Source: Escherichia coli (GTDB lineage: Bacteria > Pseudomonadota > Gammaproteobacteria > Enterobacterales > Enterobacteriaceae). From it: a DNA stretch of 7,579 nt. Position 1 is the stretch's first letter, and every line of letters starts with the position of its first letter. The stretch lies in NCBI RefSeq assembly GCF_003334305.1, contig NZ_QOWS01000045.1, one strand, 5' to 3'. The notes beneath the pieces are model-generated. The model had not been told where the DNA came from. It made no database searches and worked only from the letters and a program-made list of their open reading frames with translations. The translations under genes and the position numbers were made by a program. Of this stretch, positions 62 through 361 are shown in pieces.

Positions 62-361
62 TTAGTGTGCCACTACACCCGGCAGATCGACCAGCGTCAG
101 GCTGCGTCCTCCAGCGTTCAGGGTAAAATGCAAAGGTTTACGTGTGCAGCCTTCTGCATGGCTGACTGGGCTGAGAGGATGTTCAAAAAGGGCATTGCAA
201 AGCGAGGATTTTCCGGCACCTGTTTTGCCCATGATGCCAATCACGGGTTCGTAATGAATACTCTGGCGTATATGCTCCAGAACCAAATCGGAGATATGTT
301 CAGGAAGAATGGATAAAGGTTGCTTCAGGACATTAATGCCCCGTTCAAAGGAATCAGACAT
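62..361 (-). CDS. YfjP/YkfA/YeeP-family (50S ribosome-binding-type) GTPase, N-terminal fragment only; probably truncated/pseudogene
   Basis: The 99-aa ORF has a canonical G1/P-loop GKTGAGKSS (nt 203..229) and a G3 DLPG motif (nt 77..88), then stops 4 codons later (LPGVVAH-stop at 62..64). No G4/G5 motifs are present and no other frame in nt 1..61 continues a GTPase. The start has a strong RBS (GGAGG 4 nt upstream of ATG 359..361). Similarity to island GTPases YfjP/YkfA is from memory. Confidence 0.55.

Follow-up and report, generated by a model that had tools for sequence, protein, structure and literature searches.

An ISEc31-like element and the stump of a YfjP-type GTPase gene at the ssrA island of Escherichia coli

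The minus-strand open reading frame at positions 62..361 of the window, the 7,579-nucleotide stretch of Escherichia coli DNA analysed here, appears from its sequence to be a non-functional stump that could not work as a GTPase, and its native part ends exactly where the left terminus of an ISEc31-like insertion sequence (IS) begins. We consider it very probable that this IS had entered the neighbouring gene ypjA first, and that a deletion anchored at the IS later left the stump of the GTPase gene behind. The product is an ordinary IS-generated pseudogene, already known in RefSeq.

The 5′ remnant of a GTPase gene

The open reading frame, taken from the list of frames with translations, encodes 99 amino acids, among which GKTGAGKS matches the P-loop (G1) pattern GxxxxGK[ST] and DLPG matches the G3 pattern DxxG, the final base of its glycine codon being derived from the IS (Table 1). 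The fragment also matches the GTPase models for Era, Der, YsxC and MnmE (E ~1e-8) and aligns with YfjP of K-12 at 61% identity over 85 aa (E 4e-34), and these matches point to a GTPase identity that is more than a chance hit to a motif. Neither a G4 motif, [NT][KQ]xD, nor a G5 motif, SA[K], is present in the 99-aa frame, and where full-length proteins of this type run to about 290 aa and conserve their C-terminal half (294 aa in strain FEX669, 287 aa in YfjP), only 95 native codons are found here. G4 and G5 are general motifs of TRAFAC GTPases, and both recognise guanine. The product of the stump would retain G1, a putative switch I and G3 while losing G4, G5 and the C-terminal half, and GTP binding or hydrolysis is not expected from a 99-aa product that lacks both G4 and G5.

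The closest known system is yfjP (b2632) of K-12, part of the prophage CP4-57; that prophage and the island of the window both carry an integrase and occupy ssrA. YfjP and the stump share the P-loop block, but just the first 95 codons survive in the window, and the allele to which they belong is a distinct, diverged member of the group. The upstream neighbours differ as well, an AlpA-like gene and the PD-Lambda-4 genes in the window as opposed to rnlAB in K-12. Paralogues of YfjP are YkfA (CP4-6) and YeeP (CP4-44), and yeeP itself is a pseudogene in K-12. On the function of YfjP, YkfA and YeeP, the papers that mention these names gave lists only.

An intact allele made it possible to place the break to the base. 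In FEX669 the same segment of the island has the gene intact, at 885 bp, under the annotation 'GTPase family protein' (L003:4157-5041), and PapM-32-1 also carries an intact allele. The intact FEX669 protein matches Pfam MMR_HSR1 at residues 41-156 (E 6e-17), can be aligned with YfjP of K-12 from one end to the other (43% identity over 284 aa, E 6e-75), and has a G4-type NQAD at residues 156-159 and a G5-type SAK at 203-205. Over nucleotides 1-284 of the gene the window differs from FEX669 at 2 positions, both synonymous. The window agrees with the intact alleles up to ...GATCTGCCGGG (window 78) and is unrelated to them from 77 on, the intact gene continuing with CGCAGGTGAATCA (Gly-Ala-Gly-Glu-Ser) where the window reads TGTAGTGGCACACTAA. 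What survives of the native gene is thus nucleotides 1-284 of 885, that is, codons 1-94 and two bases of Gly95, and two thirds of the protein are absent from the window copy, including both guanine-recognition motifs. The CP4-57 gene of K-12 had been tried as the reference for the breakpoint and was replaced by the FEX669 allele because, at 61% protein identity, it is too diverged for a base-exact break. The codon for Gly95, natively GGC, now reads GGT, its third base (window 77) being the first base of the IS; since the native sequence stops after the second base and the foreign T still gives glycine, DLPG was kept by luck.

An earlier note on this DNA, made from its letters alone, had described G1 and G3 with a stop four codons further on, a remnant or disrupted gene without G4 and G5, and 61 remaining nucleotides in which no frame continued a GTPase. 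Translation bears out the first of these (GKTGAGKS, DLPG, VVAH, TAA), and the intact 294-aa allele bears out the second, as its NQAD and SAK are both lost here. The third also stands, since bases 1..61 belong to the IS, an element present whole and at 100% identity at unrelated plasmid sites. The description of G3 as intact holds for the motif and not for the DNA beneath it, where the last base of the Gly95 codon is already IS sequence, and the motif therefore survived by chance. Alignment to full-length homologues, which that note had proposed, located the breakpoint at window 77/78 by means of the FEX669 allele, and a search past the window edge for an IS, also proposed there, found one whose left end falls within the window and supplies the stop together with the four codons before it. 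A reading at the level of motifs can mislead here, as the IS supplies the entire tail and one base of the G3 glycine codon. The note had allowed that homologues might naturally be about 100 aa long, and they proved to be about 290 aa. It had likewise allowed that the window edge might be an artefact of sequencing or assembly, and the junction does lie near the end of the window and beside a repeat element, but an identical 100-nt junction is present in 144 independently assembled complete genomes, so that the feature is real and an artefact is practically out of the question.

Table 1 Features of the window and of related loci. Positions are those of the window unless another sequence is named
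Feature	Position	Strand	Basis or remark
Left (IRL) end of the ISEc31-like IS3-family element, 1,258 bp	1..77	−	whole IS at L001 7820-9077
Transposase orfA ATG	3-5	−	
IS inverted repeat and leader	6-77	−	
IS-encoded tail of the frame, VVAH and TAA stop	VVAH 65-76, TAA 62-64	−	IS copies at unrelated sites identical
G3, DLPG	77..88 (residues 92-95)	−	alignment to intact alleles; CCGGGC native, CCGGG followed by T here
Native 5′ remnant of the YfjP/YkfA/YeeP-type GTPase gene	78..361	−	match to intact alleles stops at 78
G1 (P-loop), GKTGAGKS	206..229 (residues 45-52)	−	translation; same in K-12 YfjP
Shine-Dalgarno sequence, GGAGG	366..370	−	4 nt 5′ of the remnant ATG; intact alleles identical
GC-rich inverted repeat CCGGGGGCATTGCCCCGG	481-510		minus-strand T-run next to it
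AlpA-like helix-turn-helix gene, 79 aa	527-766	−	PHROG 'excisionase and transcriptional regulator', E 7e-11
ORF, 293 aa	880-1761	+	region of 31-33% GC
PD-Lambda-4 B, 248 aa	2195-2941	−	PADLOC, 544 bits over positions 1-245 of 303
PD-Lambda-4 A (anti-phage), 1,283 aa	2987-6838	−	PADLOC end-to-end match, 2,531 bits
1,248-aa protein	L006 25679-29425	−	end-to-end match to phrog_18693 (unknown function)
IS421 (IS4-like) in JE86-ST02	L005 2834-3946		
FEX669 right-arm genes			YfjR-like regulator, two hypothetical genes, HTH gene, YfjI, Gp2-family gene
FEX669 right-arm genes, further			DUF932, RadC, DUF987, YeeU/CbtA toxin-antitoxin pair

The start signals of the gene have outlived its 3′ part. With the ATG and its GGAGG intact, and with synonymous differences alone separating the remnant from the intact allele, the 99-aa peptide may be expressed; a simple scan of the minus strand 5′ of the remnant found no promoter-like site, a negative that carries little information. 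These same signals, together with the presence of this form of the gene in 144 genomes, speak for a reading in which the P-loop peptide has been kept because it does something itself, be it as a mini-protein that binds nucleotides or as a fragment that interferes. We hold this to be very unlikely, as the 3′ end of the peptide is an accidental read-through into the inverted repeat of the IS, the peptide lacks G4, G5 and two thirds of the fold, and the scan gave no promoter-like site on the minus strand. Two substitutions in 284 nt, moreover, bear no signal of selection, and a single event, inherited by descent, may account for the junction in all 144 genomes.

An IS3-family element without a target duplication

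Most of the IS lies outside the window, past base 1. In RefSeq, the corresponding locus of strain 55989 has an 'IS3 family transposase' with a programmed frameshift, its coding sequence running from window 5 and directly adjoining the GTPase fragment; going by this annotation, the transposase would have a DDE catalytic domain. The element has orfA and an overlapping orfB in the -1 frame, and an AAAAAAG (A6G) slippery site is found at the overlap. Its termini, TGTAGTGG...CCACTACA, are imperfect inverted repeats of the 5′-TG...CA-3′ kind found in the IS3 family, matching at 27 of 45 terminal positions, the outer 8 included, and window 62..76 corresponds to positions 2-16 of the left inverted repeat. 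An automated repeat finder run across the IS gave no inverted repeats, these being too imperfect for it; the termini were read by eye and then confirmed by end-to-end matches of copies and by direct comparison of the ends. Many plasmids carry the complete element at sites unrelated to one another, 100% identical from base 1 to base 1,258, and by these matches its boundaries are fixed independently of the GTPase locus.

The name ISEc31 is used here for likeness only. ISEc31 has the same length of 1,258 bp, the same termini, two open reading frames, an A6G frameshift site and 3-bp target duplications, and a copy named 'IS3-like element ISEc31 family' by PGAP is collinear with the present element over its full length, but the 92.8% DNA identity between them marks a relative and not clearly the same IS. 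The copy in the window lineage is labelled by PGAP merely as 'IS3 family transposase', not as ISEc31.

Independent copies of the element are flanked by 3-bp target duplications (TAA, GAG and GTG), whereas at the GTPase locus the IS is bordered by GGG towards the GTPase gene and by GTG towards ypjA, and no 3-bp duplication is present. Because other copies do have duplications, these unmatched flanks speak against a simple insertion and are the signature of a later rearrangement; they give no ground to doubt the identity of the IS. Disruption of the GTPase gene by a simple insertion, its 3′ half being intact past the IS and outside the window, was among the options of the earlier note, and it would account for an IS that abuts the break precisely. 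It is extremely improbable all the same, given that ypjA and not the 3′ half of the GTPase gene lies on the far side of the IS, that the 3-bp target duplication is missing, and that a junction of the IS right end with the 3′ part of the GTPase gene was found in no complete genome. The causes listed in that note, a deletion, a rearrangement junction or a nearby insertion, hold good with two corrections: the insertion is not beyond the window edge, its left end occupying window 1..77, and the 3′ part expected further along has been deleted, not displaced.

The IS was in ypjA before it met the GTPase gene

Beyond the IS lie the first ~433 bp of ypjA, a chromosomal gene for an adhesin-like autotransporter, in the opposite orientation. 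In K-12 the order is ssrA, the CP4-57 island with yfjP, an attR remnant and ypjA, and in 55989 it is ssrA, integrase, cargo, AlpA-like gene, GTPase stump, IS and ypjA stump, everything from codon 95 of the GTPase gene to about nucleotide 433 of ypjA being gone.

Precursor junctions were built in silico and searched for in all 5,426 complete E. coli genomes. The junction predicted for an older insertion in ypjA, with the 3′ part of ypjA followed by GTG and the IS left end, was found at 100% identity in 5 genomes. FREC5 has the IS within ypjA, cleanly bracketed by the two GTG copies of its target duplication, and in S1-CAM-02-A and MARGA_3 both halves of ypjA are annotated around it. The ssrA site of the 5 genomes with this ancestral IRL junction is empty or holds a P2-like phage or a P4-like element, and none of the complete genomes proved to combine an intact island with an IS-bearing ypjA, as the progenitor would. 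The junction between the IS right end and ypjA is unchanged in the window lineage. The clean insertions in other genomes indicate that the insertion in ypjA is the older event and that the left end of the IS acquired its junction with the GTPase gene afterwards.

A probable deletion flush with the left end of the IS

The following sequence of events would account for these observations. An ISEc31-like element would have entered ypjA, making a normal 3-bp duplication of GTG, and a later deletion, anchored exactly at the IS left terminus, would have taken the 3′ part of ypjA (~3 kb), the attR of the island, its right arm, and codons 96-294 of the GTPase gene. The second base of the Gly95 codon would thereby have come to adjoin the IS end, so that reading would run into the IS inverted repeat for the four codons VVAH and then stop. 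In S1-CAM-02-A, which has an empty ssrA site, ~3.0 kb of spacer and ypjA 3′ sequence separate ssrA from the IS, and in FEX669 the right arm measures ~8.7 kb from the breakpoint to an attR-like sequence (Table 1), in an island that borders chromosomal DNA different from that of the window lineage. The deleted total would then be ~12 kb, its size and gene content being extrapolated from FEX669 because the immediate progenitor was not found among the complete genomes.

The coincidence of the deletion endpoint with the IS terminus points to the IS itself as the agent, and not to illegitimate recombination at random. Deletions adjacent to IS3-family elements range from a few nucleotides to >40 kb according to the part of PMC9943667 that cites Kusumoto 2011. 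The same part describes IS629 and the IS-excision enhancer IEE, a case in which kilobase deletions are likewise flush with an IS3-family terminus; the present locus differs from it, so far as that account goes, in that the IS itself has been retained. A second deletion of the kind was seen in 2013C-3181, where the same ypjA copy of the IS has an independent deletion of ~390 bp flush with its right end (L014 21309/21310) that takes most of the ypjA 5′ fragment. In the annotation of SCU-106 (L015) the ypjA 5′ fragment is likewise absent. One copy of the IS in ypjA appears, then, to have produced adjacent deletions at both of its ends in different lineages.

The same product could have arisen by RecA-dependent recombination, had a second copy of the IS entered the GTPase gene at GGG, oriented as the ypjA copy is, and had the exchange removed all that lay between the two and left a hybrid IS. 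This route predicts exactly the unmatched GGG and GTG flanks with perfect IS termini, each flank being one half of a duplication, and it has a ready source of copies in an IS that is common and multi-copy in many E. coli, at up to 9 places per genome. Its intermediate on the GTPase-gene side, a junction of the IS right end, GGG and the 3′ part of the GTPase gene, occurs in 0 of 5,426 complete genomes, however, and this IS end is matched only once in 55989. The 390-bp flush deletion at the other end would, in addition, require yet another insertion 390 bp off. Both routes give an identical product that sequence alone cannot separate; recombination between two copies is a serious possibility but the more doubtful of the two, and a transposase-driven adjacent deletion is favoured.

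Distribution and possible consequences

The junction is common to 144 of 5,426 complete E. coli genomes, including those of 55989 and O104:H4, and is a candidate marker of lineage; the GTPase allele itself is present in 159. Over bases 1-900 the window matches the chromosomes of 55989, of the O104:H4 outbreak strains and of many further isolates at 100% identity. For window 74-361, RefSeq gives in 55989 'GTPase family protein; incomplete; partial in the middle of a contig; missing C-terminus', and with the fragment annotated as a partial pseudogene the pseudogene call was already public. The reconstruction given here explains why this pseudogene should be partial in the middle of a contig. The locus has little importance on its own; as reconstructed, it would be a complete case of an IS eroding a genomic island, by insertion in a neighbouring gene and then by flush deletion of the right border.

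An island without attR should no longer excise by way of its integrase. We suggest, tentatively and as a combined reading that we would not call probable, that the loss of attR and of the right arm with its toxin-antitoxin genes has locked the ssrA island into the genomes that carry the junction, and that the start signals of the GTPase gene might raise expression of the transposase. If so, the locked island would hold the PD-Lambda-4 anti-phage genes, with 55989 and the O104:H4 outbreak strains among its carriers, and the retained GTPase start signals would read straight into the left end of the IS.

Neighbouring genes of the island

The AlpA-like gene lies directly upstream of the GTPase gene in all alleles examined, and FEX669 and PapM-32-1 have the same order. 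Just downstream of its stop, the inverted repeat listed in Table 1 looks like a terminator between the AlpA-like and GTPase genes, which the simple scan did not report. In JE86-ST02 an IS421 copy lies between the AlpA-like gene and the GTPase stump, one more IS gathered at a locus already in decay.

The PADLOC matches to PD-Lambda-4 A and B identify the island cargo beside the stump as a defence system. The B gene is frameshifted by one extra base in a homopolymer at 2213-2218, where the window has T6 and FEX669 has T5 (an A-run on the coding strand), and it encodes 248 aa plus a separate small open reading frame in place of a protein of 303 aa; the annotation of JE86-ST02 shows the same split. 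From the sequence, PD-Lambda-4 defence may be impaired in the window lineage, or the B protein may merely be shorter.

The plus-strand frame that encodes 293 aa had no match in NCBIfam, PADLOC or PHROGs; it lies beside the AlpA-like gene in FEX669 too. Just past the right end of the window, between the island integrase and PD-Lambda-4, is the gene for the 1,248-aa protein, which had no PADLOC hit. FEX669 has a DUF2290 gene and a DEAD/DEAH helicase gene at this position, which, with differing genes in the two islands, has the appearance of a variable cargo slot.
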